Source: Acidobacteriota bacterium
GTDB taxonomy: Bacteria > Acidobacteriota > Polarisedimenticolia > Gp22-AA2
Direction of reading: 5' to 3'
Assembly (NCBI GenBank): GCA_046758905.1
Contig: JBHIBC010000005.1
Span: 4,656-68,655 of the forward strand
Length of the DNA stretch: 64,000 nucleotides
Positions 3,396 through 46,896 of this stretch are shown piece after piece. The notes under the pieces were generated by a model. The model ran no database searches. It was not told the DNA's origin and worked only from the letters and a program-made list of their open reading frames with translations. Position 1 is the first letter of the stretch, and each line of letters starts with the position of its first letter. A program made the position numbers and the translations under genes.

Positions 3396-3566
3396 CGTCT
3401 CCTCCTGACGGGAAGGGAACGCCCCCCGGGCAAGGACGTTCCGGCGGGGGGTCCGGCGGCGCGCGCACCCCTGCGAAAATGAGCACAACGTCCTACTTGA
3501 AATGGCCGGGCCGCGGTACAATACCACTCTCCCGCAAAAAATCCCAGTCAGGAGGCCAGTGCGCCC

Positions 3567-4016
3567 ATGAAGTACCGTCAGCCCGGCTACAGGGACGGCG
3601 AATACAGGGAGGAGAGGGAACGCGAGCGCCAGGAGAGGCGCGGCCCGCGGGGCCCCCGCGGGCCCCGGGGCGCGCCGCGCGAGGCCACCCTCGTCCGGCG
3701 CTGCTTCCAGTGCGGCCACCAGGAGCCGGCCTCGCTCGGCGTCGAGCGGGGGACCCTGTGCCCCACCTGCAGCGCCCCCGCGCACTGCTGCCGCAACTGC
3801 GTCCACTTCGATCCGGGGGCCCGCTTCGAGTGCCGGGAGTCGATCCCGGCCCGGATTCCCTCCAAGACCGGGGCCAATGACTGCGCCTTCTTCCGCCCCG
3901 AGACGGTCCTCGACGCCACCGGGCGGCGCATCGTGACCCCGGGGCCCGACGAGGCCCGCGGCGGCAAGATCAGCGACGCCCGGGCCGCCTTCGACGCCCT
4001 GTTCAGGAAGAAGTAG
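3567..4016 (+). CDS. Hypothetical zinc-ribbon protein (Cys-rich)
   Basis: 149 aa; AGGAGG RBS 7 nt upstream of ATG. CFQCGH...CPTC...CCRNC...C cysteine cluster suggests a zinc ribbon. Basic/acidic low-complexity N-terminus. Confidence 0.5.
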   Translation: MKYRQPGYRDGEYREERERERQERRGPRGPRGPRGAPREATLVRRCFQCGHQEPASLGVERGTLCPTCSAPAHCCRNCVHFDPGARFECRESIPARIPSKTGANDCAFFRPETVLDATGRRIVTPGPDEARGGKISDARAAFDALFRKK

Positions 4017-4107
4017 CGGGCCGATCCCTAAGGGGCATGACATCCCGGCCCGCCGACGGCGCCGCGTCGGGGACGGCGGTCGGGGGCCCGGGGGCGGGCG
4101 TGCTACC

Positions 4108-4887
4108 ATGGCCGCGGGCATGGACCTCGGACTCCAGGGCCAGGTCGTCCTCCTCGTCGGCGCCAGCCGCGGGATCGGTTTCGCGACGGCCAGGGCGTTC
4201 GCGGCCGAGGGGTGCCGGGTGTCGATGGTGGCGCGCGGCGCCGGACCGCTGCGGGAGGCGGCGCGCGAGGTCGGGGCCCGAGCCGAGGTCTTGACGATCG
4301 CCGCCGACGCCGCCCGCGAGGAGGACGCCGCCAGGGCGGTCCGGGTGACGCTCGACCGCTTCGCGCGCATCGACGTCCTGGTTAACCTGGTCGGCGGGTC
4401 GCACGGCGAGGCCGGGATCGCCGCCGGCGATGCCGACTGGGAGGCGGTCCTCGACGCCAACCTGCGCGCCGCCGTCCGGATGACCCGTCTGGTCGTCCCC
4501 GGGATGCGCGAGCGGAGGCGCGGCGCGATCATCAACGTGTCGTCGATCTTCGGGCGCGAGTGGGGCGGCGCCGCCTCGTACAACGCCGCGAAAGCGGCGC
4601 TGATCGCCTACACCAAGAGCTGCGCGCGGGAGCTGGCGCCGCACGGGGTTCGCGTGAACAGCATCGCCCCCGGCTCGGTCCTCTTCCCCGGGGGCTCCTG
4701 GGACCGCCGCCGCAAGGCCGACCCGAAGAGGATCGAGGCCTTCGTCGAGCGGGAGCTCCCGCTCGGCCGCTTCGGGAAGCCCGAGGAGGTCGCCGCCGCG
4801 ATCGTGTTCGTGGCGTCGCCCGCGGCGTCGCTCGTCATCGGCGCCTGCCTGAACGTCGACGGCGGGCAGAGCCGGTCCCTCTTCTGA
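4108..4887 (+). CDS. SDR family NAD(P)-dependent oxidoreductase
   Basis: GASRGIG cofactor motif, NxxG, catalytic YNAAK (YxxxK), and a C-terminal region typical of short-chain dehydrogenases. Alternative start at ATG 4121 (MDLGLQG...). Confidence 0.85.
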   Translation: MAAGMDLGLQGQVVLLVGASRGIGFATARAFAAEGCRVSMVARGAGPLREAAREVGARAEVLTIAADAAREEDAARAVRVTLDRFARIDVLVNLVGGSHGEAGIAAGDADWEAVLDANLRAAVRMTRLVVPGMRERRRGAIINVSSIFGREWGGAASYNAAKAALIAYTKSCARELAPHGVRVNSIAPGSVLFPGGSWDRRRKADPKRIEAFVERELPLGRFGKPEEVAAAIVFVASPAASLVIGACLNVDGGQSRSLF

Positions 4888-5585: not shown

Positions 5586-6531
5586 GCCTCGGCCGGCGCT
5601 TCTCCGCCAGGACGGCGAAGGTCTCGAAGATCATCTGCAGGGCGAGGAAGAGGGTGGCGCCGGTCGGATCGAGCGACGGGGCGACCTCCACCAGGTCCAT
5701 CGCGCGGATCGGGAGCTGCTGCACGAGGCCGCGCGTCAGATCGATCACCTGCCGGCTTGACAGGCCCCCGGGGCCCGGCGCGCCGGCCCCGGGCGCGCAC
5801 GCCGGGTCGGCGACGTCGATGTCGATCGTCAGGTAGACGCTCCCGATCCCCTTCAGGCGGTCCCGGGCCCGTCCGACCACGGCCTCCACCCCGCTCCGAT
5901 CGATCTCCCGCGCCGGGACGAACAGGATCCCCTTCTCCTTCATGAACGCCAGCTCCTCGACGTTGTAGGAGCGGGTCCCCAGGATCAGCAGGTGCTCCGG
6001 CTTCAGGCGGCCCCCGTCGAGCGCGCGGCGGGCGGCGCAGGCGCTCGACAGCCTCGAGCCGTCGTAGGTGTCGAACAGGTCGGGGTGGGCGTCCAGCAGG
6101 ACCAGGCCGAAGCCCTCCGGGAAGTGCGTGGAGAAGCCGCGCACCAGCGGGATGGTGAGCGAGTGATCGCCGCCGATCGACAGCACGAAGGCGTCGCCGG
6201 CGAGCGCCGCCGCCCGGAGCGTCGCGGCCGCCGCGCGCTCGATGCGGGCGAAGTAGTCCAGCCGGGCGCGGTCACGGTCGCGGCCTCCCGCCCCGGGATC
6301 GGGCGGCGCGTCCCCCGCGTCGCGCACCCGCAGCAGCGAGCGGTCGACCACGTACCCCGTCTCGGAGATCGCCGGGGAGGAGGCGGAGATCTCGCGCAGC
6401 CGCGCGGGGGCCTCCGCCGAGCCGCCCCGCCAGCAGGCTCCCCCCTCGTACGGGAGCCCCGTGATCACGACATCGTAAGGCGGCGCGAGATCGGGATCGG
6501 CGAGGCCGCCCCAGAGGTGGCGTCGGATCAT
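5554..6531 (-). CDS. Arginase/agmatinase/formiminoglutamase-family ureohydrolase
   Basis: Mn-binding motifs of the ureohydrolase fold: GGDHSLT, DAHPD, TIDIDVADP. Convergent 32-nt overlap with the TenA-like gene 3' end. Confidence 0.8.
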   Translation of the reverse strand: MIRRHLWGGLADPDLAPPYDVVITGLPYEGGACWRGGSAEAPARLREISASSPAISETGYVVDRSLLRVRDAGDAPPDPGAGGRDRDRARLDYFARIERAAAATLRAAALAGDAFVLSIGGDHSLTIPLVRGFSTHFPEGFGLVLLDAHPDLFDTYDGSRLSSACAARRALDGGRLKPEHLLILGTRSYNVEELAFMKEKGILFVPAREIDRSGVEAVVGRARDRLKGIGSVYLTIDIDVADPACAPGAGAPGPGGLSSRQVIDLTRGLVQQLPIRAMDLVEVAPSLDPTGATLFLALQMIFETFAVLAEKRRPRPKSGGAAARR

Positions 6532-16858: not shown

Positions 16859-16894
16859 CGCGGCGCCGGGGCCGATCGTGGGAGGACGTCGGAG

Positions 16895-19051
16895 ATGTCG
16901 CGTCGGACGAGTCGACTAGCGGTGCGGCTGATGGCCGCGAGCCTCGTGCTGCTCGCCCAGGGATGCGGCCGCAGCGGCGGGCACGCGGGCGGGTCGGGAA
17001 GGGTGAACATGCCGGTTGAGCCTCCGGTGGCGGAGAGGGTCCCGCACGTCGAGACGCGCCACGGCGAGCGGGTGCGGGACGACTATTTCTGGCTGCGGGA
17101 CCGCTCGAACCCGGAGGTCGAGCGGTACCTGAAGGCCGAGAACGAGTACACCAGGCGGCTCATGCAGCCGACCGAGCCCCTCCAGGACCGCCTCTACAGG
17201 GAGATGCTGGCGCGGATCAAGCAGACCGACCTCTCGGTCCCCGAGAGGGAGGGCGACTACCGCTACTACCACCGGACCGAGGAGGGGAGGCAGTACCGGA
17301 TCCACTGCCGGAGGAAGGGGAGCCTGGAGGCGGCGGAGGAGGTCATCCTCGACGAGAACGAGCTGGCCCAGGGCGAGAGGTACTTCCGCCTCGGGGGGCT
17401 CGAGGTCAGTCCCGATCACCGCCTGCTCGCCTTCTCCGTGGACACCACCGGCGGCGAGCGCTACACGCTCTACATCAAGGACCTGGGGACTGGGCGGGTG
17501 CTGGAGGACGGCATCCCGAACACCTACTCGTTCGAGTGGGCCAACGACTCCCGGACCGTGTTCTACAGCACTCTGGACGAGGCGCACCGCCCGTACCGCC
17601 TGCACCGGCACCTGCTGGGGGCGCCGGCCTCCCGGGACGTCCTGGTCTACCAGGAGGACGACGACGCGTTCTTCCTCGACATCGACAGGACCCGGAGCCG
17701 CAGGTACCTGTTGCTCCAGCTCGGGAGCAACACCACGACAGAGATCCGCTACCTGGACGCCGACGATCCGACGGGGAGCTTCAGGCCGATCCAGCCGCGC
17801 CGGCACAGACTGGAGTACGCGGTCGAGCACTGGGGCGCTCGCTTCTTCATCCTCAACAACGACGGCGCCGTCAACTTCCGGCTCGTCGAGGCCCCGGTCG
17901 CCGACCCCTCGATGGAGAACTGGAAGGAGGTCATCCCGCACCGCGACGACGTCCTGCTCGAGAGCATCGAGGCGTTCGCCGGGCACCTGGCGCTGGTGCA
18001 GCGCAGGAACGGGCTGCGGGAGGTGCGGGTGATCGACCTGCCGGCCCGGACCGAGCACACCATCGAGTTCCCCGAGCCGGCCTACAGCTTGCGCCTAGGC
18101 CGCAACCCGGAGTTCGACACGCGCCTGCTGCGCTTCACCTACGAGTCGCCCGTGACGCCCGAATCGGTCTTCGACTACGACATGACCACGCGGGAGCGGA
18201 CCCTGCTCAAGGAGCAGGAGGTGCTCGGCGGCTACGACCGCACGGCCTACGAGGTGGAGCGGCTGTTCGCGACGGCGCCCGACGGGGCCCGGGTCCCGAT
18301 CACCCTGGCGCACAAGAAGGGCCTGAAGCGCGACGGGACCAACCCGCTGCTCCTGTACGGCTACGGGTCGTACGGCGCGGTCGTCGACCCGACCTTCTCC
18401 TCCAACCGCCTGAGCCTGCTCGACCGCGGCCTCGTCTACGCGATCGCCCACGTGCGCGGCGGGGGCGCGTTTGGCCGTCCGTGGTACGAGGACGGCAAGA
18501 TGCTCAGGAAGCGCAACACCTTCACCGACTTCATCGCCTGCGCCGAGCACCTGATCGCGCGCGGGTACAGCTCCGAGCGACGGCTGGCGATCCACGGCGG
18601 CAGCGCCGGGGGCCTGCTGGTGGGCGCGGTGATCAACATGCGCCCCGACCTGTTCAAGGTCGTGGTGGCCGACGTGCCGTTCGTGGACGTCGTCAACACC
18701 ATGCTGGACGCGTCGATCCCGCTGACCGCGATCGAGTGGGAGGAGTGGGGTGACCCGCGCGAGAAGGAGTATTACGACTACATGCGATCGTATTCCCCGT
18801 ACGACAACGTCGGGGCGAAGGACTATCCGGACCTGCTGATCACCACGAGCCTGAACGATCCCCGGGTCTCCTACTGGGAGCCCGCCAAGTGGGCGGCCAA
18901 GCTGCGCGCCCTCAAGACCGGCGACGGCCTGCTGCTGTTGAAGACCAACATGGACGCCGGCCACGGCGGCGCGTCCGGCCGCTACGAGAGGCTCAAGGAG
19001 CTCGCCTTCGAGTACGCCTTCCTCCTGAGCCGGCTGGGCGTCGAGCGGTAG
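16895..19051 (+). CDS. ptrB: S9 family serine peptidase, oligopeptidase B-like (prolyl oligopeptidase family), exported
   Basis: Signal/lipobox LVLLAQGCG. N-terminal beta-propeller. C-terminal alpha/beta-hydrolase catalytic domain with nucleophile elbow GGSAGGLLVG, the Asp and His regions (NDPRV..., DAGHGG), and the oligopeptidase-B-like block YRYYHRTEEG. Confidence 0.85.
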   Translation: MSRRTSRLAVRLMAASLVLLAQGCGRSGGHAGGSGRVNMPVEPPVAERVPHVETRHGERVRDDYFWLRDRSNPEVERYLKAENEYTRRLMQPTEPLQDRLYREMLARIKQTDLSVPEREGDYRYYHRTEEGRQYRIHCRRKGSLEAAEEVILDENELAQGERYFRLGGLEVSPDHRLLAFSVDTTGGERYTLYIKDLGTGRVLEDGIPNTYSFEWANDSRTVFYSTLDEAHRPYRLHRHLLGAPASRDVLVYQEDDDAFFLDIDRTRSRRYLLLQLGSNTTTEIRYLDADDPTGSFRPIQPRRHRLEYAVEHWGARFFILNNDGAVNFRLVEAPVADPSMENWKEVIPHRDDVLLESIEAFAGHLALVQRRNGLREVRVIDLPARTEHTIEFPEPAYSLRLGRNPEFDTRLLRFTYESPVTPESVFDYDMTTRERTLLKEQEVLGGYDRTAYEVERLFATAPDGARVPITLAHKKGLKRDGTNPLLLYGYGSYGAVVDPTFSSNRLSLLDRGLVYAIAHVRGGGAFGRPWYEDGKMLRKRNTFTDFIACAEHLIARGYSSERRLAIHGGSAGGLLVGAVINMRPDLFKVVVADVPFVDVVNTMLDASIPLTAIEWEEWGDPREKEYYDYMRSYSPYDNVGAKDYPDLLITTSLNDPRVSYWEPAKWAAKLRALKTGDGLLLLKTNMDAGHGGASGRYERLKELAFEYAFLLSRLGVER

Positions 19052-20558: not shown

Positions 20559-22808
20559 TCAGGAGATCCGGATCGGCTCGTTGGCGTTGACGAACAGGAC
20601 GTCGCGCAGCTGCGCGTGCGCCAGGAGGGCCCGCTCGGGGCTCTCGAAGATCTCCTTCTGCCTCAGGCCGAGGATGACCAGGTCCGCCTCGGACGAGCGC
20701 CTCGCGGTGGCCATCTCGAACGAGGTTTCGCCGCCGTAGGCGACCGGCGTGATCTTCTCGGGCGAGATCGGCAGGCGCCCCTCGGTGACGATCTGGTTGA
20801 CCTTCTCCATCTCCTCCTTGACCTCCGAGGCGGGGTAGCAGGCGAACAGGCGGATCTCCGCCTCCTCCCAGTCGGGATGGCCGAGGATGATGTAGGCGAG
20901 CAGGATCTGCAGCGGGGCGCTGGCCAGGTCGTCGGCGGTCAGCCAGATGTGGATGTCCTTGCGGTACCCGAAGCGGAACCCGGCCGAGCGCAGCACGCAC
21001 ACGTTGAAGCCGAGCGGGGCGAACAGCCGCGCCCCCTCGATCACCTCGGCCAGCTCCTCGGAATGCTCCTTCGAGAACTCGAGAAGCACGCCGTTGTTCG
21101 GCAGCCCCGACACCCCGGGCAGCTGCGCGACGTGGGAGAGGGCGGTCATGTACGAGGGGGCGACGATCGTCTTGACGAATACGCCGGCGCGGCTGGCCTC
21201 CGTCTGGACGATCAGCTTGCGGGCGATCTCCTCCGCCTTGCGGCTCGACTCGGGGGTCAGCGTCCCGTCGACCAGGTGGATGAGCTGCCCGAACCCGTGC
21301 CGCTGGCTGATCCAGCGCAGCAGGTCGAAATGATCGACCCGGTCGAGCGACTTCCTGGACAGCGCCACGAAGGAGGGCCGCCAGTCGCGGATCCGCCCCC
21401 CGGGGTCGCTCCGCTGCAGCGAGATCTGCAACCGGCGCGTCAGCTGGAACATCACCCCCTCGAAGATGGCGGCGAGGTCGCGCTCCTCGCGGCGCCTGTA
21501 CCCCAGCCCCTTGTAGATGGCGATCATGATCAGCAGCGCCAGCAGGGCGTAGAACGGCCGCATCTGGAACATCATCATGAAGCACATCACGGCGCCGAGC
21601 GCCGACAGGTACCATCGCGATCGGAACGTCGGGCGGTAGGAGGGATTGCCCGCGAAATGCTCCAGGAAGGAGACGCTGCACAGGGCGCCGTAGGTCACCA
21701 TGAAGAACATGCTGATGATCTGCGCCACGAAGTTGACGTCGCCCACGGCCACGAAGGCCAGGGCGACGGCGCTCGACACGAGGGTCGCCGCCACCGGCTC
21801 GTGGGCCGGACCGCGACCCCGGGCCAGGAAGGCGTTGAGCCTGACAGTGGGGAAGACCCGGTCGCGCGCCAGCGCCTGCAGGGTGCGGGGTGCGACCAGG
21901 ATCGACCCGACCGCCGAGGAGAGGGTCGCCGCGGCCAGCCCGATCGGGATGATCGGACCCCACAGGGCGATCCGGCTCATGATCAGCTGGTCGCCGGCCA
22001 GATCCCCGGGCGCGGCGCTCGCGGCCAGCTTGACGACCAGGGCGACGTAGACCAGCATGCCGGTCAGGGTGGCCGACAGCACCCCGAGGGGGATCGACCG
22101 GCGGGGGTTCTTCAGGTCCCCCGACAGGCCGACCCCGGCGGTCATCCCGGTGAACGCGGGGAAGCAGATGGCGAACACCAGGATGAACGGGTCGGGCCGG
22201 TCGATGTGGTGCGCCAGCGGGAGGCCGTGCGCGGCGTCGGCCGCCGGCCCGCCGCCGAGGAAGAAGAGGCCGAGCGACGCGGCCAGGATGCCGCAGACGA
22301 CCCACAGGGCCCTGACGCCCATGCTCGCGCCGCGCCTGAGGATGACGCCGAGCAGGATCAGCGAGGCGGGGAGGCTGACCATCCGGGGGTCGGTGGGGAT
22401 GCCGAAGCGCTCCTCCGCAACCTCGAGCAGACGCCCGAACGCCTCGGCGAAGGCGATCATGTAGAAGGCGACCGAGACGACCTGCGACAGGTAGAGGGGG
22501 ATCCCGATGGCGCCGCCGATGGTCCGGCCGAAGGATCGGCTGATGATGTGGTACTCGCCGCCTCCCTCCACCCGGCGGTTGGTGGCGATCTCGGCGATCG
22601 CCATCGCCGTCGGCACGGTCACCATGTGGCCGAGCAGGATCACCAGCAGGGATCCGATCAGGCCCAGGTGCCCCACGGCGTAGCCGAACCGCAGGAACAT
22701 GACGGCGCCCAGGATGGTGCTGACCGAGGCGAGGAACACCGGAGCGGTCCCGAACCCGTGACCCGTAAGCCGCCCGGCCGGGCCCTTCGCGGGCTGAGGA
22801 GTCGTCAT
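20559..22808 (-). CDS. SLC12-like cation:chloride cotransporter homolog (APC superfamily permease with CCC-type C-terminal cytoplasmic domain)
   Basis: 749 aa; start ATG 22808..22806 (MTTPQPAK...). Strong similarity to eukaryotic CCC TM1-TM3 signatures: FLRFGYAVGHLG; EIATNRRVEGGGEYHIISRSFGRTIGGAIGI (compare NKCC ...[28 protein letters not shown]). 12 TM segments, then a roughly 300-aa soluble C-terminal domain. The 1154-aa ORF extension is antisense to the LysM gene and rejected. Confidence 0.8.
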   Translation of the reverse strand: MTTPQPAKGPAGRLTGHGFGTAPVFLASVSTILGAVMFLRFGYAVGHLGLIGSLLVILLGHMVTVPTAMAIAEIATNRRVEGGGEYHIISRSFGRTIGGAIGIPLYLSQVVSVAFYMIAFAEAFGRLLEVAEERFGIPTDPRMVSLPASLILLGVILRRGASMGVRALWVVCGILAASLGLFFLGGGPAADAAHGLPLAHHIDRPDPFILVFAICFPAFTGMTAGVGLSGDLKNPRRSIPLGVLSATLTGMLVYVALVVKLAASAAPGDLAGDQLIMSRIALWGPIIPIGLAAATLSSAVGSILVAPRTLQALARDRVFPTVRLNAFLARGRGPAHEPVAATLVSSAVALAFVAVGDVNFVAQIISMFFMVTYGALCSVSFLEHFAGNPSYRPTFRSRWYLSALGAVMCFMMMFQMRPFYALLALLIMIAIYKGLGYRRREERDLAAIFEGVMFQLTRRLQISLQRSDPGGRIRDWRPSFVALSRKSLDRVDHFDLLRWISQRHGFGQLIHLVDGTLTPESSRKAEEIARKLIVQTEASRAGVFVKTIVAPSYMTALSHVAQLPGVSGLPNNGVLLEFSKEHSEELAEVIEGARLFAPLGFNVCVLRSAGFRFGYRKDIHIWLTADDLASAPLQILLAYIILGHPDWEEAEIRLFACYPASEVKEEMEKVNQIVTEGRLPISPEKITPVAYGGETSFEMATARRSSEADLVILGLRQKEIFESPERALLAHAQLRDVLFVNANEPIRIS

Positions 22809-24424: not shown

Positions 24425-26269
<1,845 letters not shown>

Positions 26270-26477
26270 GACCGTCCCCCTGCCTCCAAAGGGCGCGAGC
26301 GCGTTCCGGTTGCGCGGTACCGAGCGAACCTACTCCACCGCTCGGGCTTCGTCAAGACGCGGCCCGGGGAGCCCGTCGAGGGCGCCGCCCGGCGCCGGGC
26401 CGTGTGGACAAGCCTCTTCGCCGGAACTATATTTGGGTCCCACAACTCCCCGTGCCGCCTCGACATGGAGCCCTACG

Positions 26478-38175: not shown

Positions 38176-40689
38176 GTGCGCCACGGTTCCCACCGAGTCG
38201 CGGCTCGCTGCGGCTCGCTGCTGGCGGTCTTGTCGCTCGCCGCCTGCCGCGGGGCGGCGGCCCCGGGGCCGGGGACCGTCCGCCTGGTCGATCGCCGCGC
38301 CGCCGCGCTCGTGAGCGGCACGCCCGGAGGAGCCGGAGGGAGGCCGGGCGAAGCGCCGGGCGGGGGCCCGCCGCCGGCCGGGGCCGAGTGGCGCTTCGAG
38401 CGTCCGCCTCCAGGGCCCGGGACCGGCCACCGGGATCGGGCGGGGGCCGGGAAGATCGGGGCCGCGCGCGACTGGGAGCCGGGCCCCGGGGTCGCCGGCC
38501 TCGCCGTCCATGACGGGAAGCTGATCGGCCGCAGCAGCACCGATTTCCCCCTCATCCACCTCGAGCGCGGGGCGGGCCTCGACGATCAGGACCTGCTGCA
38601 CGAGATCCGGGTGCGGCTGCGGGTCTCGGCCGGCGCGAACCTGTCGCTCGCGCTGGATGATTCCGAGACGGTCGACCTGGTGAGGAAGGTGGCGGGCGCG
38701 CGGACCTTCCCATGGAGGCTCGCCACCCCGATCGTGCCGGGCGGCGAGCTCAGGACGTACGTCCTGCGGAGCCGCTGGCCGCACCGCGGAGCGGACATCC
38801 GGCACATCCTGATCCGGCCGACCGACGCGCCGGGGGCGACCTTCGAGATCGAGTCGGTCCGGCTCGTCTTCCGCAGACAGTACCTGGCCTCGATCCCCTC
38901 CGGGGCGGGCTGGCAGGGGCTCGGAGGGATCTATCGCGAGACGATCGTCTCCCGGGCGCCCGAGTCGATCCGGTTCGAGATCGACCTGCCCGACCGTCCG
39001 TGGCTCGACCTGGCGATCGGGACGATCGAGGGCGCTCCCGTGACCTTCCGCGTGACGGTGAGCCCGGCCGGGCCGGGCGCCGCCCCGGGGCCCGAGGGGA
39101 CCGGCGGCGGCGCGATCGTCCTCGAGCGCACGGTCACGACGCCGCGCCGCTGGGAGCCGGCGCCGATCGACCTGGCGTCATTCGCGGGGCGGCGCGTCGG
39201 GCTGACGCTGTCGCTGGCCGCCGATGCTCCGGGCAGGATCGGTTTCTGGGGCTCTCCGGTGGTGCGCCGGCGCCGAGCGCCGCCGGGCGGCCGCGGGCGC
39301 GGAGCGCCGCCGCGGGGCGTCATCCTGATCATGGCCGACACGCTGCGCCGGGACCACCTCGACGCCTACGGGTACGCCCGCGCCACCGGCCCCGCGCTGC
39401 GGGGGATGGCGGAGGAGGGGGCGCTGTTCGCCGACTGTCTGACCCAGGCGACCTGGACCAAGGTCGCGGCGCCGTCGCTCGTCACCTCGCTCTACCCGGC
39501 CGCGCACGGGGTGAGGGAGTTCGACCACCGCCTGCCCGGGAGCGCGGTGACGGCGGCCGAGATCTACCGCGACGCCGGGCACGCCACCGTCGCCTACTCC
39601 TCGAACCTGTTCACCGGGCGGTTCTCCAACATGCACCAGGGGTTCGAGGAGCTGCACGAGGACGGCTCGCTCGCCGATCCGGCCTCCAGCAAGACCTCGC
39701 GCGAGTATATGGACCGCGCGCTCGCCTGGATCGAGGCCCACCGGGACGTCCCGTTCTTCGTCTTCCTCCACCTCTACGACCCCCACGATCCGTACCGGCC
39801 GGGCCCGCCCTACGACGCGATCTGGGCCGACCCGTCGCGCCGCGAGGAGCACGAGCGGCAGGCGAGGCGGGTCCGCGAGCTGATCGCCGACCCCCAGCTC
39901 AGGAGGTTCGGCATGCCCAGCCGGGAGGAGCTGGCGAAGGCCGGCATCGACCCGGCGGCCTACGTGGGACGGGAGCGCGACCTGTACGACGGCTCCATCC
40001 GGGGGATGGACGCCGAGGTCGGCCGGCTCCTGGAGCGCCTGCGCGGGCTGCGGCTCGCGGACGCGACCCTCGTCGCCTTCGTCAGCGACCACGGGGAGGA
40101 GTTCCTGGAGCACGGCGAGATGTTTCACGGGCACACCGTCTACGGCGAGCTGACCGACGTGCCGCTGATCCTCTGGGGGCCCGGCGTCGTCCCGCGCGGC
40201 GCCGTGGTGGGCGAGACGGTCGAGCTGGTCGACGTCCTCCCGACGCTGCTCGAGCTGAGCGGCCTGCGGCCGCCGCCCGGCGCGCAGGGCCGCAGCCTGG
40301 TGCCGCTTCTGGGCGCGGCTCGAGCGCCTCCGCCCGGCTGGGAGAGCCGCCCCGCCCTCGTGGAGAAGGCGTCCATCGAGGACGTGGCCGGCCCGGGGCA
40401 CCGCGAGGAGGAGTCCTACGCGGCCGTGACCCGCGCATGGAAGCTGATCCACAACGTGAAGCGCCCCGTCGGCCGGCCGGAGTTCGAGCTGTACGATCGC
40501 CGCGCCGATCCGCTCGAGCGGAACGACGTCGCCGCGCGGCACCCCGCGGTGGTCGAGCGCCTGTCGCGCGAGCTGGCGGCGCGGCGCGATCGTGCCGCGG
40601 CCGGCCGGCTGCCGCCGGGCCCCGAGACCGCCGAGGAGATCGACCGGGAGCGGCTGGAGCGCCTCCGCGGCCTCGGCTACATCCGCTGA
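38176..40689 (+). CDS. Sulfatase-like hydrolase (alkaline-phosphatase superfamily) lipoprotein with large N-terminal domain
   Basis: GTG start with GGGAGGG 7 nt upstream; lipobox LSLAAC. C-terminal about 480 aa has the sulfatase/AP-superfamily pattern (VILIMADTLRRDHL...GYATVAYSSN...LHLYDPHDPY...VSDHGEEF). The canonical C/S-x-P-x-R formylglycine motif is not apparent (TQATWTKVAAPSL). Confidence 0.7.
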   Translation: MRHGSHRVAARCGSLLAVLSLAACRGAAAPGPGTVRLVDRRAAALVSGTPGGAGGRPGEAPGGGPPPAGAEWRFERPPPGPGTGHRDRAGAGKIGAARDWEPGPGVAGLAVHDGKLIGRSSTDFPLIHLERGAGLDDQDLLHEIRVRLRVSAGANLSLALDDSETVDLVRKVAGARTFPWRLATPIVPGGELRTYVLRSRWPHRGADIRHILIRPTDAPGATFEIESVRLVFRRQYLASIPSGAGWQGLGGIYRETIVSRAPESIRFEIDLPDRPWLDLAIGTIEGAPVTFRVTVSPAGPGAAPGPEGTGGGAIVLERTVTTPRRWEPAPIDLASFAGRRVGLTLSLAADAPGRIGFWGSPVVRRRRAPPGGRGRGAPPRGVILIMADTLRRDHLDAYGYARATGPALRGMAEEGALFADCLTQATWTKVAAPSLVTSLYPAAHGVREFDHRLPGSAVTAAEIYRDAGHATVAYSSNLFTGRFSNMHQGFEELHEDGSLADPASSKTSREYMDRALAWIEAHRDVPFFVFLHLYDPHDPYRPGPPYDAIWADPSRREEHERQARRVRELIADPQLRRFGMPSREELAKAGIDPAAYVGRERDLYDGSIRGMDAEVGRLLERLRGLRLADATLVAFVSDHGEEFLEHGEMFHGHTVYGELTDVPLILWGPGVVPRGAVVGETVELVDVLPTLLELSGLRPPPGAQGRSLVPLLGAARAPPPGWESRPALVEKASIEDVAGPGHREEESYAAVTRAWKLIHNVKRPVGRPEFELYDRRADPLERNDVAARHPAVVERLSRELAARRDRAAAGRLPPGPETAEEIDRERLERLRGLGYIR

Positions 40690-40785
40690 GGGGCCCCGCC
40701 GCCGCTCCTGAGCTTTCGGGGTACAATCCGGCGCCCCCTGCAACGAACCGAGCTCCGGGAGCGACCCGTCTTCGGAGGAAGACCG

Positions 40786-43497
40786 ATGCCGAGCTTCTGT
40801 CGCAGAGCCTTCACACCCAGCCTACTGATCGCCTCCACCCTGGCCCTGGCCGTCTGCCTCGCGCCCGGGCCGGCGGGCGCCGACGCGCCCGCCGCCGCGG
40901 CGGGGCGCGAGCTCACGGCCGACGATCTCAAGGGCCTCGAGTGGCGCAGCGTCGGGCCGGCGAACATGGGCGGGCGGGTGGCGGCGATCGCCCTCGTCCC
41001 GGGGAGCCGGACCAGCTTCTACGTCGGCTACGGCACCGGCGGCGTCTTCAGGACGGACAACCTGGGGACCACCTTCGAGCCGGTGTTCGACAAGTACCCC
41101 GTGCTGTCGATCGGCGCCATCGCCGTCGCCGACGCGCCGCCGGAGGGCGAGGGGGAGCCCGAGGGCAGGGGGAAGATCGTCTGGGTCGGGACCGGCGAGG
41201 CCAACGGGCGGAACAGCTCGTCGTGGGGCGGCGGCGTCTACCGCTCGACCGACGGCGGCGAGACCTTCACCTACGTCGGCCTGAGGCAGACGCACGACAT
41301 CCCGCGCCTGGCGGTCGACCCGCGCGACCCGGACGTCTGCTACGTGGCGGCGCTCGGACACCTGTGGGGGTACAACCCCGAGCGCGGCGTCTTCAAGACG
41401 GAGGACGGGGGCAGGACCTGGAAGCACGTCCTGAAGGTGGACGAGCGGACCGGCGCCGCGGACGTGGTCATCGATCCGACCAGCCCGGACACCGTCTACG
41501 CGGCGCTTTACGCCCGGCGCCGGACGCCCTGGAGCTTCTCCGGGAACAGCGACAGGGGAGGCATCTTCCGATCCGACGACGCCGGCCGCAGCTGGAAGAA
41601 GCTGACGAGCGGGCTCCCCCCGCGCAGCGGCCGGATCGGGCTGACCATCTATCCGAAGGACACGCGCATCCTGTACGCCGTGGTGGAGAGCGACTACGGC
41701 GGCCGGGGGCGCGACATGTTCGACAACTACTCCCCCAGCGGCGGCCTGTTCCGCACCGAGGACCGCGGCGAGACCTGGACCCGGGTCAGCCCGCTCAGCT
41801 TCCGGCCGTTCTACTTCTCGCGCGTGGCCGTCGACCCGAACGACGACCGGCGCGTCTACCTGCCGGGGTGGGACCTGGCGATCTCGGACGACGGCGGGAG
41901 GACGTTCCGCCGCTCCGGGAGCGAGAACGTCCACGTCGACTTCCACGCCATCGTCGTCAACCCGATCGACCCGCGGCAGATCCTCATCGGCACCGACGGC
42001 GGCCTGTACGTCTCCGAGGACCGGGCGAAGACCTGGCGCTTCCTCGACAACGTCGCCGCGGGGCAGTTCTACCGGGTCGCGGTCGACATGCTCGACCCGT
42101 ACCGGATCGGCGGCGGGCTGCAGGACAACGGCTCCTGGATCGGCCCCTCCGAGACGCTCTTCCTGACCGAGGACCAGAGGGCCGACGGCATCCTGAACTC
42201 CGACTGGCGGATGATCCACGGCGGCGACGGCTTCACCGTCGCCTTCGACCCGACCGACCCGAACCTGGTGTACGCCACGTCGCAGGGCGGGTACCTGGTC
42301 CGCATCCGGCTGGACGACAACGTCAAGAAGCTCATCAAGCCGGCGGCCCTCGAGGGGGACGAGCGGCTCCGCTTCAACTGGGACGCGCCGTTCCTGATCT
42401 CGCACCACGACCCGAGCGTCCTCTACCTGGGAGGCAACCGGGTCTTCAAGCTGACGGAGCGGGGCGAGCTGGCGTTTCCCATCGGCGGCGAGCTCAGCCG
42501 GGACGAGCCGGGCAAGACCGAGACGGTCGGCTCGGAGGCCGAGACCTACGGCACGGTGGTCTCGCTGGCGGAGTCGCCCCTGCAGCAGGGGCTCCTCTGG
42601 GCCGGCACCGACGACGGCCTCATCCACGTGACCCAGGACGACGGAAGGACCTGGACCGAGGTGACGCCGGAGCAGGTCGGCGGGCTGTACGTGTCGCGGA
42701 TCGCCGCGTCGCGGCACGCCGCTCGGACCGCCTACGTCGCGGTCGACGGCCACCGCAGCGACGTGTTCCGCCCGATCGTGTTGATGACCGAGAACGCGGG
42801 ACGGCGCTGGCGGGACATCACCGGCGACCTGCCGGACGGCGGGCCCGTGCGGGTCGTGGTCGAGGACGTGGCGAGCCCGCAGGTGCTCTATGCGGGGACC
42901 GAGTTCGGCATCTACGTCACCCTCGACCGCGGCCGCCGGTGGGTGCGGATGAACGGCTCGACCTTGCCCCCCGTGGCGGTCCACGACATCGTGCAGCACC
43001 CGCGCGAGAGGGATCTGGTGGTCGGCACGCACGGCCGCAGCGTCTACGTGCTCGACGACGCCTCGATGTTCGCGCAGCTCACGCCAAAGGTGCGCGGCCG
43101 GCCGCTGGCGCTGCTCGAGATCCTGCCCGGCACCCCGCGCCTGTACACGCGGCGCAGCTACGGATCCGGCCACGCCATCTTCCGCGCCAAGAACCCGCCG
43201 CTAGGGGCCGCCATCAACTACTGGCTGCGCGAGGAGGCCGGCCGGCCGGTCAAGGTCGAGATCACCGACGCCCACGACACCGTCATCCGCGAGCTTCAGG
43301 GCCCCGGCTATCGCGGCCTGAACCGCGTCGTCTGGGACCTGCAGGCCGATCCCAAGCACCGCATCCCGACGGTGGACGTGGCGTGGAACGAGCAGACCGA
43401 GTTCGTCCCGGCCGGCGAGTACAAGGTCACGCTCGAGGTGGGCGAGGAGAAGGTGGAGGGCACGGTCGAGGTGCGGCCGGCCCCGAACGCTCCGTGA
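40786..43497 (+). CDS. BNR/Asp-box repeat beta-propeller protein (sortilin/VPS10-like, GH74-like), secreted
   Basis: Signal peptide; at least 9 Asp-box repeats (STDGGETF, TEDGGRTW, SDDAGRSW, TEDRGETW, SDDGGRTF, SEDRAKTW, TQDDGRTW, TENAGRRW, TLDRGRRW). 903 aa, typical of two-propeller sortilin-like proteins. Confidence 0.8.
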   Translation: MPSFCRRAFTPSLLIASTLALAVCLAPGPAGADAPAAAAGRELTADDLKGLEWRSVGPANMGGRVAAIALVPGSRTSFYVGYGTGGVFRTDNLGTTFEPVFDKYPVLSIGAIAVADAPPEGEGEPEGRGKIVWVGTGEANGRNSSSWGGGVYRSTDGGETFTYVGLRQTHDIPRLAVDPRDPDVCYVAALGHLWGYNPERGVFKTEDGGRTWKHVLKVDERTGAADVVIDPTSPDTVYAALYARRRTPWSFSGNSDRGGIFRSDDAGRSWKKLTSGLPPRSGRIGLTIYPKDTRILYAVVESDYGGRGRDMFDNYSPSGGLFRTEDRGETWTRVSPLSFRPFYFSRVAVDPNDDRRVYLPGWDLAISDDGGRTFRRSGSENVHVDFHAIVVNPIDPRQILIGTDGGLYVSEDRAKTWRFLDNVAAGQFYRVAVDMLDPYRIGGGLQDNGSWIGPSETLFLTEDQRADGILNSDWRMIHGGDGFTVAFDPTDPNLVYATSQGGYLVRIRLDDNVKKLIKPAALEGDERLRFNWDAPFLISHHDPSVLYLGGNRVFKLTERGELAFPIGGELSRDEPGKTETVGSEAETYGTVVSLAESPLQQGLLWAGTDDGLIHVTQDDGRTWTEVTPEQVGGLYVSRIAASRHAARTAYVAVDGHRSDVFRPIVLMTENAGRRWRDITGDLPDGGPVRVVVEDVASPQVLYAGTEFGIYVTLDRGRRWVRMNGSTLPPVAVHDIVQHPRERDLVVGTHGRSVYVLDDASMFAQLTPKVRGRPLALLEILPGTPRLYTRRSYGSGHAIFRAKNPPLGAAINYWLREEAGRPVKVEITDAHDTVIRELQGPGYRGLNRVVWDLQADPKHRIPTVDVAWNEQTEFVPAGEYKVTLEVGEEKVEGTVEVRPAPNAP

Positions 43498-43505
43498 CGC
43501 CGGCC

Positions 43506-43838
43506 TCAGGCCGGGCGCGAATCGCCGCAGTCGCCGCAGAGGAGGAGGAAGTAGCAGCGCCGGGCGACGCGATCGCACAGCGAGTGGACCGTGCGCCGCC
43601 GGCCCCCGCACGCCGGGCAGGCGGTCTCGCGGGCGGCCCGGCTGACCGCCTCGTAGCGCTCCCGATGGGTGGGGAGGATCTCGGCGTCGTACACCCTGCC
43701 GCACTCCCGGCAGGTCGCGACGCTCAGGCACTCCCGAATCGCGCTGTCGCACCGGAGGGCGACCTGCATCGACGAGGTGCCGCAGGTCGCGCAGATGAGA
43801 TCGGCCGCCCGCGTCTCGATCTTCGCGAATGATGTCAT
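43506..43838 (-). CDS. Hypothetical double zinc-ribbon protein (four CxxC motifs)
   Basis: 110 aa; CATC...CREC...CPAC...CGDC. Divergent from the DUF3179 gene. Confidence 0.45.
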   Translation of the reverse strand: MTSFAKIETRAADLICATCGTSSMQVALRCDSAIRECLSVATCRECGRVYDAEILPTHRERYEAVSRAARETACPACGGRRRTVHSLCDRVARRCYFLLLCGDCGDSRPA

Positions 43839-43919
43839 ATCATGCGCAACGCGAGCGCGGGAGCGACTATTCCCGGAATGCCCCGGGCCGGCGCGGCTCG
43901 AGTCGGAAAGCGCGCTTCG

Positions 43920-44822
43920 ATGAGCTTCGATCCCCGAAAGGCGGTGCTGCGCGGGCCCGACCACTTCGAGCGGTTCCGCGTTCCCGATTCCGCCGCGCGG
44001 CTGGCCGACCTGCGACTCCCCCCCGGGGAGATGCTGCTCGTCGTCGAGCGCGGCGGCGAGAGGCGTGCGCTGCTCGTCTCGCAGATGGCCTACCACCACG
44101 CCGCCCAGGGGAGGCTGGCGGGCCGGCCGTACCTGGTCTCGTTCTGAATGATCTGCCACTCGGGGGTCGGTCTGACCCCCGTCGTCGAGGGGCGGCTCCA
44201 CCACTTCAGCGCCGGGGGCCTGCACAACGGGCTGATCCTGCTGATCGACGACGAGACCCGCACCTACTGGGACCACATCACGGGCGAGGCGGTACGCGGC
44301 CCGCTCCGCGGCAGGCGGCTCGAGAGTTGGGCCGTGCGGATGACCACCGCCGGTGCGGCGCTGGCGGGCGATCCGGATCTAGCGATCTCCCGCTCGGGGC
44401 GCGGTCTTCTGGCCCGCTGGCTCGGGGGCCTGGCCCGGTGGCAGGTGCGCGGGCGCGGCCTGATGCCCTTCTTCTTCCATCGCACCATGGAGCCGAAGGA
44501 CCGTCGCCGCCCGACGATGGACCAGGGCCTAGGGGTCGTGGTCGGGACGCGCGCCCGGTACTACCCGCTCGAGGCGCTCCGCGCGGGAGCGAGGGCGGGG
44601 ACGGGCGCGCCTGCCGGCCTGGCCGACGACTGGTCGGGGCGCAGGCTGCGCCTCTTCATCGACCCGGCCGACCGCATCCCGGCCGCGGAGTGGGAGGACG
44701 GCGGCCGGCCGTTCCAGATCTTCACCCGCTGGTACGGCTTCTCCTTCACCTATCCCGGCTGCGAGATCTACCGGGGGCCGGGAGGGGGACCCGGGGGCGC
44801 CGGATCCGGGACGGCGGTGTAG
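43920..44822 (+). CDS. DUF3179-family protein with in-frame TGA (candidate selenocysteine) at 44145..44147; UxxC in place of the family CxxC
   Basis: ORFs 43842..44147 and 44148..44822 are in the same frame and together span one DUF3179-like domain (...ERGGERRALLVSQMAYHHAAQGRLAGRPYLVSF-TGA-MICHSGVGL...GGLHNGLILLIDDETRTYWDHITGEAVRGPL..). The TGA sits where family members (as I recall them) have the first Cys of (V/L)TYCPLC. Start uncertain: ATG 43920, 43878 or 43842. Confidence 0.55.
44161..44181 (+). other. bSECIS-like mRNA hairpin 13 nt downstream of the in-frame UGA (8-bp GC stem, apical loop GGUCU)
   Basis: CGGGGGUC-GGUCU-GACCCCCG. Loop GGUCU is the same as the SelB-contacting apical loop of E. 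coli fdhF SECIS. The UGA-to-loop distance (about 24 nt) is within the bSECIS range. Confidence 0.45.
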
Positions 44823-44874: not shown

Positions 44875-46896
44875 TTGGCGACTCGATCGCGGCGGCACGG
44901 CGGCCCGGAGCGAGGGACGCGGGGGGAGTTCGCGACGGCGCGCGGGCGCCGCGCGGGTGCGGGAGTGGGCGCGCGGCGCGCGGGGGCTGGCGCGCCGGCC
45001 ACGGTCGCGCTCGCGTGCGCGCTGTCTCTGATCTCGTGCCAGGCGGGGGGACCGGGCGCTTCCCGTGGCGGCGGGGGATCCGGGCGCGCCGCTCAGGGCG
45101 GCGCGGTGCCGGCCCGCGACATCCACTCCTTCAGCCGGCCGGAGGACGTGAGGGTCACCCACGCGGAGATCGACTGGACCGTCGACTTCGAGGCCCGGCG
45201 CATCCGCGGCAGCGTCACCTGGACGATCGAGCGCGCGCCCGGCGCTGAGGACGAGCCGCTCCTCCTCGACACGCGCGATCTGACGATCGAGTCGGTGGCC
45301 ACGCCGTCGGGCGCGCCGCTCGAGCACGAGCTTGCGCACCAGCACCCGGCCCTCGGCAAGGCGCTCGGGATCCAGGTGCCTCCGGGCGGGGACCGGGTCG
45401 TCATCCGCTACCGCACCGGGCCCGACGCGAAGGCGCTGCAGTGGCTGTCGCCGGAGCAGACCGCCGGGAGGAAGAGGCCGTACCTGTTCTCCCAGGCGGA
45501 GTCGATCCTGGCCCGCACCATGCTGCCGTGCCAGGACAGCCCCGCGGTGCGGTTCACCTACGGCGCCCGGGTGCGCGTCCCCGCGGGCCTGCGCGCGGTG
45601 ATGGCGGCACGGATGCTCCCGGGCGGCGGCGACGGCGAGCCGTTCCGGTTCGCGATGCCGCAGCCGATCCCGAGCTACCTGTTCGCCATCGCCGTCGGCG
45701 ACATCGCGTTCCGCGAGATCGGCCCGCGGTCGGGGGTCTACGCCGAGCCGTCGGTGGTCGAGCGGGCCGCCTGGGAGTTCGCCGACACCGAGAGGATGAT
45801 GGAGGCGGCCGAGCGGCTCTACGGGCCGTACCGCTGGGAGCGCTACGACATCCTGGTGCTGCCTCCGAGCTTCCCCTTCGGCGGGATGGAGAACCCGCGG
45901 CTGACCTTCGCCACGCCGACGGTGCTGGCCGGCGACCGCTCTCTCGTCTCGCTGGTGGCCCACGAGCTGGGGCACTCCTGGTCGGGGAACCTGGTCACCA
46001 ACGCCACCTGGGCCGACTTCTGGCTGAACGAGGGGTTCACGGTCTACCTGACCCGGCGGATCCTGGAGGAGCTGTACGGGAAGGAGCGGGCGGAGATGAA
46101 CGCGGTGCTCGGCAAGCAGGACCTGCTCGCGGAGATGCCGGACCTCGAGCCCGGCTTCACCGCGCTGCACAACGTGTCGCTGGACGGACGCGACCCCGAC
46201 GACGCCTTCAACGAGGTCCCCTACGAGAAGGGGTACCTGTTCCTGCGCCTGCTCGAGGAGGAGGTCGGGCGCCGGCGCTTCGACGCCTTCCTGAGGAGGT
46301 GGTTCGACGGCAACGCCTTCCGGAGCCGCACGACCTTCGACCTGGAGGAGGCGCTGCGCTCGGAGCTGTTCGCCGGGGACGAGGCCCGGCTTGAGGCGCT
46401 CCGGGTGAAGGAGTGGCTCTACGGGGAGGGGCTGCCGGACAACGCCCCCGAGCCGCGGACCGAGGCGTTCGCCCGCACGGGGGCCGAGGCGGCGGCGTTC
46501 GCGGCGGGCGAGAGACGGGCGCCGGACATCCCGGCGGGAGCCTGGACCACCCGGGAGTGGCAGCACTTCCTGCGCGCCCTGCCGCACGACGTTCCGGCCG
46601 CGAAGATGGCCGAGCTCGACGCCGCCTGGTCGCTCACCCGGTCGGGCAACGCGGAGATCCTGTTCGAGTGGCTCCTGCGCTCGATCCGCGCCCGCTACGA
46701 GCCGGCCTACCCGGCGCTGAGGAGGTTCCTCACCGAGCAGGGCCGGCGCAAGTTCCTCAAGCCCCTCTACACCGAGCTGGCGAAGACCGCGGAAGGGAAG
46801 CGGCGCGCCCTGGCGATCTACCGGGAGGCGCGGCCGCTGTACCATCCGGTCTCCAGCAGCACGATCGACGCCATCCTCGAGTACACGCCCGCCTGA
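44875..46896 (+). CDS. M1-family aminopeptidase, leukotriene-A4-hydrolase/cold-active aminopeptidase-like, lipoprotein
   Basis: TTG start with GGGGAGG 8 nt upstream; lipobox LISCQ. Exopeptidase motif GGMENP, zinc site VAHELGHSWSGN plus NEGFTVYL (HEXXH-18-E), LTA4H-like C-terminal ARM domain. Confidence 0.85.
   Translation: MATRSRRHGGPERGTRGEFATARGRRAGAGVGARRAGAGAPATVALACALSLISCQAGGPGASRGGGGSGRAAQGGAVPARDIHSFSRPEDVRVTHAEIDWTVDFEARRIRGSVTWTIERAPGAEDEPLLLDTRDLTIESVATPSGAPLEHELAHQHPALGKALGIQVPPGGDRVVIRYRTGPDAKALQWLSPEQTAGRKRPYLFSQAESILARTMLPCQDSPAVRFTYGARVRVPAGLRAVMAARMLPGGGDGEPFRFAMPQPIPSYLFAIAVGDIAFREIGPRSGVYAEPSVVERAAWEFADTERMMEAAERLYGPYRWERYDILVLPPSFPFGGMENPRLTFATPTVLAGDRSLVSLVAHELGHSWSGNLVTNATWADFWLNEGFTVYLTRRILEELYGKERAEMNAVLGKQDLLAEMPDLEPGFTALHNVSLDGRDPDDAFNEVPYEKGYLFLRLLEEEVGRRRFDAFLRRWFDGNAFRSRTTFDLEEALRSELFAGDEARLEALRVKEWLYGEGLPDNAPEPRTEAFARTGAEAAAFAAGERRAPDIPAGAWTTREWQHFLRALPHDVPAAKMAELDAAWSLTRSGNAEILFEWLLRSIRARYEPAYPALRRFLTEQGRRKFLKPLYTELAKTAEGKRRALAIYREARPLYHPVSSSTIDAILEYTPA

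Follow-up and report, generated by a model that had tools for sequence, protein, structure and literature searches.

Selenoproteins of the DUF3179 family have been catalogued before, with selenocysteine (Sec) in the motif UxxC/T (PMC9312934, PMC13188914). Both reviews credit the family to the study of Olavius symbionts by Zhang & Gladyshev (2007) (PMC1976440); the family name was not found in the text of that paper, so the two reviews are the basis of the attribution. Neither an experimental demonstration of selenium nor functional work was found in the literature on DUF3179, which came to three papers. In bacteria, the SECIS element lies directly 3' of the UGA, where SelB carrying Sec-tRNA(Sec) binds it in competition with RF2 (PMC4513850), and it has been generalised as a stem of 6–8 bp with a conserved loop G approximately 20 nt past the UGA (PMC4605307).

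The locus described here comes from a metagenome-assembled genome of the Acidobacteriota, and lies in a 64-kb stretch of DNA with a G+C content of 72%, the whole of which is referred to below as the window. It is a further member of the catalogued family and not a new one. An earlier note on this DNA had taken a Sec-containing DUF3179 protein to be undescribed, which is at odds with the listing of the family in the two reviews and with the product name 'DUF3179 domain-containing (seleno)protein' that NCBI gives to the downstream fragment and to many of its relatives. With the known DUF3179 selenoproteins the locus shares a match to the Pfam family PF11376 and Sec as the first residue of UxxC, and it differs from them in nothing essential, the PF11376 match being partial here (profile positions 17–206 of 292, covered by residues 28–221 of the fused protein). 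Bacterial SECIS elements, for which that of E. coli fdhF is the paradigm, likewise have a hairpin within the ORF just past the UGA, a stem of this length and a loop G; the DUF3179 hairpin differs in that no bulged U is evident in its conserved stem. The fdhF loop also reads GGUC, and its G and U are contacted by SelB.

Reading frame and domain of the DUF3179 gene

The TGA at 44145..44147 is the sole in-frame interruption before the terminal TAG, whether the frame is followed from ATG 43842 or from ATG 43920. The ORFs that flank it (43842/43920..44147 and 44148..44822) share one frame, and the second opens with an ATG at 44148 that abuts the TGA. The start codon at 43920 (MSFDPRKA...) matches the N-termini of homologues (M..FD..RA.L..PD.F.RF), while that at 43842 does not. 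Coding signal is strong on both sides of the TGA, with a GC3 of 0.84 and 0.92 for the upstream and downstream halves, respectively. Over 361 nt, TGA included, the sequence agrees in every base with the independent Logan assembly of run SRR29324601.

The fused protein scored 72.4 bits against PF11376 (gathering cut-off 27), compared to 16.4 bits for the upstream ORF and 34.2 bits for the downstream ORF. The upstream ORF covers profile positions 17–64 and the downstream ORF positions 67–206, so that the domain crosses the TGA. The ORF reading and the Pfam scores thus uphold two claims of the earlier note, namely that one frame is interrupted by this TGA alone and that one DUF3179 domain extends across both ORFs. 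The public record nevertheless holds two CDSs, MFQ5876396.1 (75 aa, hypothetical protein) and MFQ5876397.1 (224 aa, the fragment with the '(seleno)protein' name), and the Logan gene calls likewise give two. A scan of the fused protein against NCBIfam matched no family, which indicates that no NCBIfam HMM of this release is the source of the '(seleno)protein' name.

Judged from sequence, 43920..44822 is one gene encoding a 300-residue DUF3179-family protein that has been mis-split in the public record, and the NCBI gene model is wrong in the manner that is usual for selenoproteins. Users of the split records lose the N-terminal third of the protein, including the predicted active-site Sec. The features of the gene are collected in Table 1.

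Table 1. Predicted features of the DUF3179 locus, in window coordinates.
Feature	Position	Strand	Basis or detail
Predicted DUF3179 selenoprotein gene	43920..44822	+	300 residues, Sec at residue 76; one frame and Pfam domain across the stop
Terminal stop codon TAG	44820..44822	+	
UGA, predicted Sec76, position one of U-x-x-C	44145..44147	+	Sec/Cys pairing; TGA across species
Cys79 codon, second residue of the U-x-x-C motif	44154..44156	+	Invariant in homologue alignment
His59 and His60 codons, 16 residues N-terminal of Sec	44094..44099	+	His60 invariant; His59 at least 90%
Putative bacterial SECIS hairpin	44161..44181	+	8 bp here; conserved core 44163..44168 : 44174..44179; loop 44169..44173

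Sec and Cys forms among homologues

When the fused protein, with the stop written as X, was searched against the database, 204 relatives were obtained, and those listed all carry PF11376. The best 120 of the 204 comprised approximately 40 full-length proteins (about 280 aa) and approximately 80 fragments of roughly 200 aa. Among the 40 full-length homologues, at least 90% have Cys in the column aligned to the TGA, and all keep the second Cys (Cys79), the motif reading ...VSF-C-x-x-C-(H/N)-(S/T)-G-V-G.... The UGA therefore stands where a CxxC motif has its first Cys, as had been proposed from the window sequence. Twelve of the fragments were inspected; they start at or just past the Sec position (e.g., MxCHSGVG, VVCNSGVG), apart from one that starts farther downstream, a pattern expected of gene callers that stop at a Sec codon. 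About two thirds of the closest homologues (among the best 120 of 204) are cut to a similar length.

One scan of the GTDB species-representative genomes yielded 80 loci from other species, which were translated in register. The codon at the Sec position is TGA in 61 of them and TGC or TGT in 18, with one locus (L075) unclear and neither TAA nor TAG in any. The predicted Sec form is thus the majority form of this DUF3179 subfamily (61/80 species). Together with the window sequence, the 61 loci make up a set of 62 Sec forms, which was compared with the 18 Cys forms. The equivalent of Cys79 is Cys in all members of both sets (62/62 and 18/18), and the open frame upstream of the TGA extends for at least 76 codons in every Sec-form locus. 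The UGA is conserved at one codon across species with coding conserved on both sides, and it stands in frame opposite a conserved Cys, seen both in the 40 homologues and in the 18 TGC/TGT loci, as is characteristic of prokaryotic selenoproteins.

The TGA-form loci are exclusively bacterial and span at least eight phyla. They occur in Acidobacteriota, Gemmatimonadota, Planctomycetota, Myxococcota and Chloroflexota, and also in Thermodesulfobacteriota, Rokubacteria, Marinimicrobia and Alphaproteobacteria. The 18 Cys forms include four from cyanobacteria and seven from archaea (Thermoplasmata, Thaumarchaeota); Acaryochloris marina MBIC11017 (locus L029; NC_009925.1 near 3.28 Mb) is available in culture and carries the Cys form. 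Sec use is apparently absent from Cyanobacteria, and its archaeal users are very few (Methanococcales, Methanopyrales) (PMC9312934). The Cys forms hence fall partly in lineages that are reported not to use Sec, which counts in favour of reading the TGA as a Sec codon.

The hairpin downstream of the TGA

In the window, the 5' arm at 44161..44168 (CGGGGGUC) and the 3' arm at 44174..44181 (GACCCCCG) form a stem of 8 bp, seven of which are G-C, closed by the apical loop GGUCU (44169..44173). The spacer from the UGA is 13 nt to this stem and 15 nt to the part of it that is conserved, and the first loop G is located 21 nt past the UGA. Stem, loop and spacing are present exactly as the earlier note had described them. 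In the window sequence alone, the fold is not above chance for DNA of 72% GC (z = -0.86). When the Rfam SECIS models were run in E-value mode on 44100..44260, the best was SECIS_3 at 14.1 bits (E = 1.3), below its gathering score of 63, and the hairpin therefore lacks the match to a curated SECIS model that might have been expected of it. This miss carries little weight, the coverage of this class of hairpin by the Rfam SECIS families being uncertain. It is the comparative data, and not the window sequence singly, that are decisive for the predicted hairpin.

The 54 nt from the Sec/Cys codon onwards were aligned without gaps for the 62 Sec forms and the 18 Cys forms. The Sec-form consensus is GGN-GUC / GGUCU / GAC-N'-CC, in which N and N' are the third bases of the codons for Gly82 and Thr86, respectively, both of them synonymous sites. 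The pair that these two bases make (44165:44177, alignment positions 21:33) is CG in 18 Sec forms, GC in 15, AU in 13, GU in six and UA in six, with four unpaired; it is formed in 58/62 Sec forms, compared to 5/18 Cys forms. The covariation score of the Sec set was 0.250, against 0.100 for shuffles (0/500 reached the score), and was above every slid control, whereas that of the Cys set, used as a control, was 0.167 against 0.159 for shuffles (175/500). For the Sec set, RNAalifold without a supplied structure returned the matching stem of 6 bp with its loop of 5 nt; for the Cys set (n = 18), it predicted no pairs. The hairpin had been called bSECIS-like on its appearance, and these compensatory changes at synonymous sites, seen in the Sec forms only, bear that description out.

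The loop reads GGUCU in 51/62 Sec forms, and a subgroup rich in Gemmatimonadota has alternatives such as AGUCU, AGUUU and AGGAU. Its second base (44170) is G in 62/62 Sec forms, and its third base (44171) is U in 57/62 Sec forms compared to 1/18 Cys forms, despite being a synonymous Gly position. The outermost two pairs of the 8-bp stem in the window are poorly kept (paired in 10/62 and 24/62), and the stem conserved in the family is the inner 6 bp only. Minimum free energy of the +3..+57 region did not separate Sec from Cys forms (Mann-Whitney p = 0.29); what distinguishes the two, as far as alignments can tell, is a specific conserved hairpin and not overall stability. As in other bacterial SECIS elements, a stem of 6–8 bp follows the UGA within the ORF and presents a loop G at a distance of about 20 nt, compensatory change is found in the Sec forms, and the structure is missing from the Cys homologues. 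The putative SECIS also constrains the peptide G-V-G-L-T-P of the Sec forms and their Gly codon GGU, so that the locus neatly illustrates how an RNA element can shape protein sequence.

The UGA at 44145..44147 very probably encodes Sec by way of this downstream SECIS. A ribosome arriving at the UGA would find the hairpin 44161..44181 (core 44163..44179) acting as the SECIS, which would recruit SelB-GTP-Sec-tRNA(Sec); Sec would be inserted in place of termination, and translation would proceed past Sec76 to the TAG at 44820..44822. That SelB binds and that Sec is in fact inserted in the host organism is presumed here on the strength of the established bacterial mechanism (PMC4513850, PMC4605307). 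Neither selA, selB nor selD was found among the 30 high-GC3 ORFs of the window that were scanned against Pfam, and ARAGORN found no tRNA-Sec in the 64 kb, the single tRNA there being a tRNA-Met, which was also the only hit of Rfam at gathering thresholds across the whole window. The lack of Sec machinery from 64 kb of a several-megabase genome is uninformative.

Two ordinary explanations of the TGA have to be weighed against Sec insertion. The TGA could end a 75-aa protein and ATG 44148 open an independent, translationally coupled DUF3179 protein of 224 aa, an arrangement that agrees with the adjoining ATG, with the two CDSs annotated by both NCBI and Logan, with TGA being the commonest ordinary stop codon in the window, and with the absence of Sec machinery among the window genes. 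It would, however, cut a single Pfam domain at a conserved Cys, and the full-length Cys homologues are single chains. Moreover, the TGA and the invariant Cys are separated by two codons, neither of which is ATG, GTG or TTG in 40/62 TGA orthologues (22/62 have some start codon there), so that a separate downstream gene would lose this Cys. The choice of stop codon also speaks against two genes: the interrupting in-frame stop is TGA in 62/62 cases, compared to 63% for the stops that terminate these genes (TGA 39, TAG 12, TAA 11), and the chance of such uniformity, were these ordinary stops, is P ~3e-13. The covarying hairpin is retained solely where the TGA is present. A pair of genes is a very improbable account of the locus.

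Even less credible is that the TGA is an artefact of sequencing or assembly, or that a nonsense mutation has recently turned the gene into a pseudogene. The source is a metagenome-assembled genome, in which single-base errors do occur, but the independent assembly of SRR29324601 is identical, the TGA is shared by 61 other species, and both halves of the gene retain coding signal and conserved residues. Elsewhere in the window, the TGA junctions at 459..461 (-), 20559..20561 (-) and 40687..40689 (+), where high-GC3 ORFs adjoin in the same frame, were considered as further selenoproteins and rejected: the domains differ between the two sides, a start resembling a signal peptide lies at 40786, and all three look like ordinary boundaries between genes.

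Candidate roles of the Sec-containing site

An AlphaFold2 model built from a 41-sequence alignment was of high confidence (pLDDT 90.6, pTM 0.88), and in it strands 61–66 and 69–74 pair as a beta hairpin, the register of which would place residues 59/60 opposite 75/76. His60, and possibly His59, are on this basis candidates to share an active or metal site with Sec76 and Cys79. Rieske [2Fe-2S] domains have their ligands in the spacing C-x-H-x15-17-C-x-x-H, and where they carry C-x-H ... C-x-x-H the DUF3179 protein has Y58-H59-H60 ... U/C76-x-x-C79. The spacing of His60...Sec76-x-x-Cys79 thus mirrors that of the Rieske ligands with other residues, which favours a metal centre of Rieske derivation. 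We tentatively suggest that the N-terminal beta domain may be derived from a Rieske domain, and that Sec76, Cys79 and His60, possibly with His59, may make up a redox centre that binds metal at the site of the Rieske cluster, with a selenolate replacing a Cys thiolate. The broader proposition, that DUF3179 is a metalloprotein family derived from the Rieske fold, with a redox metal or Fe-S centre that is selenolate-liganded in most bacterial members of the subfamily, seems rather unlikely. To our knowledge, a selenocysteine ligand has not been described in any protein of the Rieske fold.

The DUF3179 protein may be Rieske-like in fold, at most, and is not classed here as a Rieske protein. The motif CxH...CxxH is not present in it as such, and the fused protein had no match to the Pfam Rieske family (PF00355) at E <= 1. 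It also differs from Rieske ferredoxin domains and the cluster-less, Rieske-like NirD in carrying an additional domain of about 150 residues at its C-terminus. Variation of Tyr58 and His59 in some orthologues counts against a metal site. Searching the PDB by sequence gave nothing beyond a weak match to the designed propeller Tako8. Across the gene neighbourhoods of the 80 loci, compared by tblastn of the neighbours and by all-against-all clustering of flanking ORFs, nothing was recurrent apart from the DUF3179 gene and the shadow ORFs antisense to it.

U76-x-x-C79 could instead be a metal-free selenol/thiol–selenenylsulfide motif, like those of thiol-disulfide oxidoreductases, with His60 tuning the nucleophile. 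Most prokaryotic selenoproteins have Sec in redox motifs of the UxxC, CxxU or UxxS type (PMC1976440). The motif UxxC/T given in the reviews implies that the second Cys is replaceable in some members, as resolving cysteines are, and this is more in keeping with a redox nucleophile than with a metal ligand; position 80 (His/Asn) is not conserved. The pairing of U-x-x-C with C-x-x-C in Cys homologues is shared with the thioredoxin-fold UxxC/CxxU selenoproteins, such as the thiol:disulfide interchange and AhpC/Prx-like proteins. The DUF3179 protein differs from these in having no thioredoxin-like match in Pfam or among the structural matches listed, and a thioredoxin-fold oxidoreductase was rejected on those grounds. 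The metal-free selenenylsulfide motif is accordingly no firmer a proposal than the Rieske-derived metal centre, and we consider the two about equally likely. The earlier note had drawn a thiol/selenol redox function as the implication of a Sec-containing DUF3179 protein; this is one possibility only, as the fold evidence fits a metal-ligand role too.

As regards Sec itself, the DUF3179 locus is a modest confirmation rather than a discovery. The predominance of the predicted Sec form marks residue 76 as functionally critical within a family of no known function. The possible Rieske-like fold, together with the arrangement His...Sec-x-x-Cys, provides a concrete hypothesis that is testable on a Cys homologue and, if it were true, a Rieske-derived selenolate centre would assign a function to this widespread family.

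Other open reading frames and in-frame TGA codons in the window

At 72% GC, the window has very long open reading frames that are shadow frames, and the real frames were told from these by the G+C content at third codon positions (GC3). An ORF of 1706 aa in 38712..43832 (+), which overlaps the sulfatase and sortilin genes, was among those rejected as genes on these grounds. Two further very large ORFs carry little annotation (see table). With an angiotensin-converting-enzyme-type peptidase, an M1 peptidase, a prolyl oligopeptidase and a DUF4953 Met-zincin, the window is rich in peptidases.

Besides the codon of the DUF3179 selenoprotein gene, there are three further sites in the window at which a TGA joins two high-GC3 ORFs in one frame. 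The domains differ across each TGA, and all three sites resemble ordinary gene ends rather than selenocysteine (Sec) codons.

Features of the window
Feature	Position	Strand	Remarks
DUF4953 Met-zincin	462..4607
Prolyl oligopeptidase	16859..19048
Angiotensin-converting-enzyme-type peptidase	24428..26329	-	full-length; Peptidase_M2, 772 bits
M1 peptidase	44875..46893
Cys-rich ORF, 110 aa	43509..43841	-	gene call in the independent Logan assembly
Very large ORF, 1672 aa	54807..59822	+	cohesin domain
Very large ORF, >930 aa	61191..63998	-	runs past window end; marginal HNH match only
TGA junction	459..461	-	Met-zincin / SurA-like
TGA junction	20559..20561	-	amino-acid permease / ABM monooxygenase
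TGA junction	40687..40689	+	sulfatase / sortilin/BNR with signal-peptide-like start

Directly upstream of the selenoprotein gene, in divergent orientation, lies the Cys-rich ORF, which contains four CxxC pairs and has a weak, below-threshold match to a Zn-ribbon (20.5 bits). It was absent as a neighbour of the DUF3179 gene in all 80 other loci.

Similarity to a designed propeller and an aberrant orthologue

Tako8 (6y7o, 6g6m) is a computationally designed, 8-bladed beta-propeller. It was weakly matched by the family profile (E = 2e-6), with no single stretch passing alone; the matching part covers protein residues 111-173 (window about 44250..44438), in the segment GGLYNGLVLLIDDET.TYWDHITG.

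Among the orthologues, only L075, a locus in a Planctomycetota MAG (about 6001..6300), lacks both TGA and Cys at the Sec position, where it reads ...GNRGWFPSGVVCNSG... The sequence there suggests a local frameshift or decay of this copy.

The SECIS hairpin, its variants and the protein sequence

One subgroup of Sec forms, mostly from Gemmatimonadota (L065, L067, L071-L074, L076, L077, L080, L081), carries the apical loops AGUCU, AGUUU, AGGAU, AGGGU or UGGAU instead of GGUCU. With A25 and U29 paired, the stem would extend to 7 bp and leave a loop of 3 nt. These hairpins may be a SECIS variant suited to a different SelB.

Across the conserved core of the SECIS, the 62 Sec forms encode the peptide G-V-G-L-T-P, with Leu85 in 57 and Thr86 in 54 of them, whereas among the 18 Cys forms residue 85 is Met in nine and residue 86 is Thr or Asp. 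The codon for Gly84 is GGU in Sec forms but almost never so in Cys forms. The protein sequence encoded at 44163..44179 is constrained by the SECIS.
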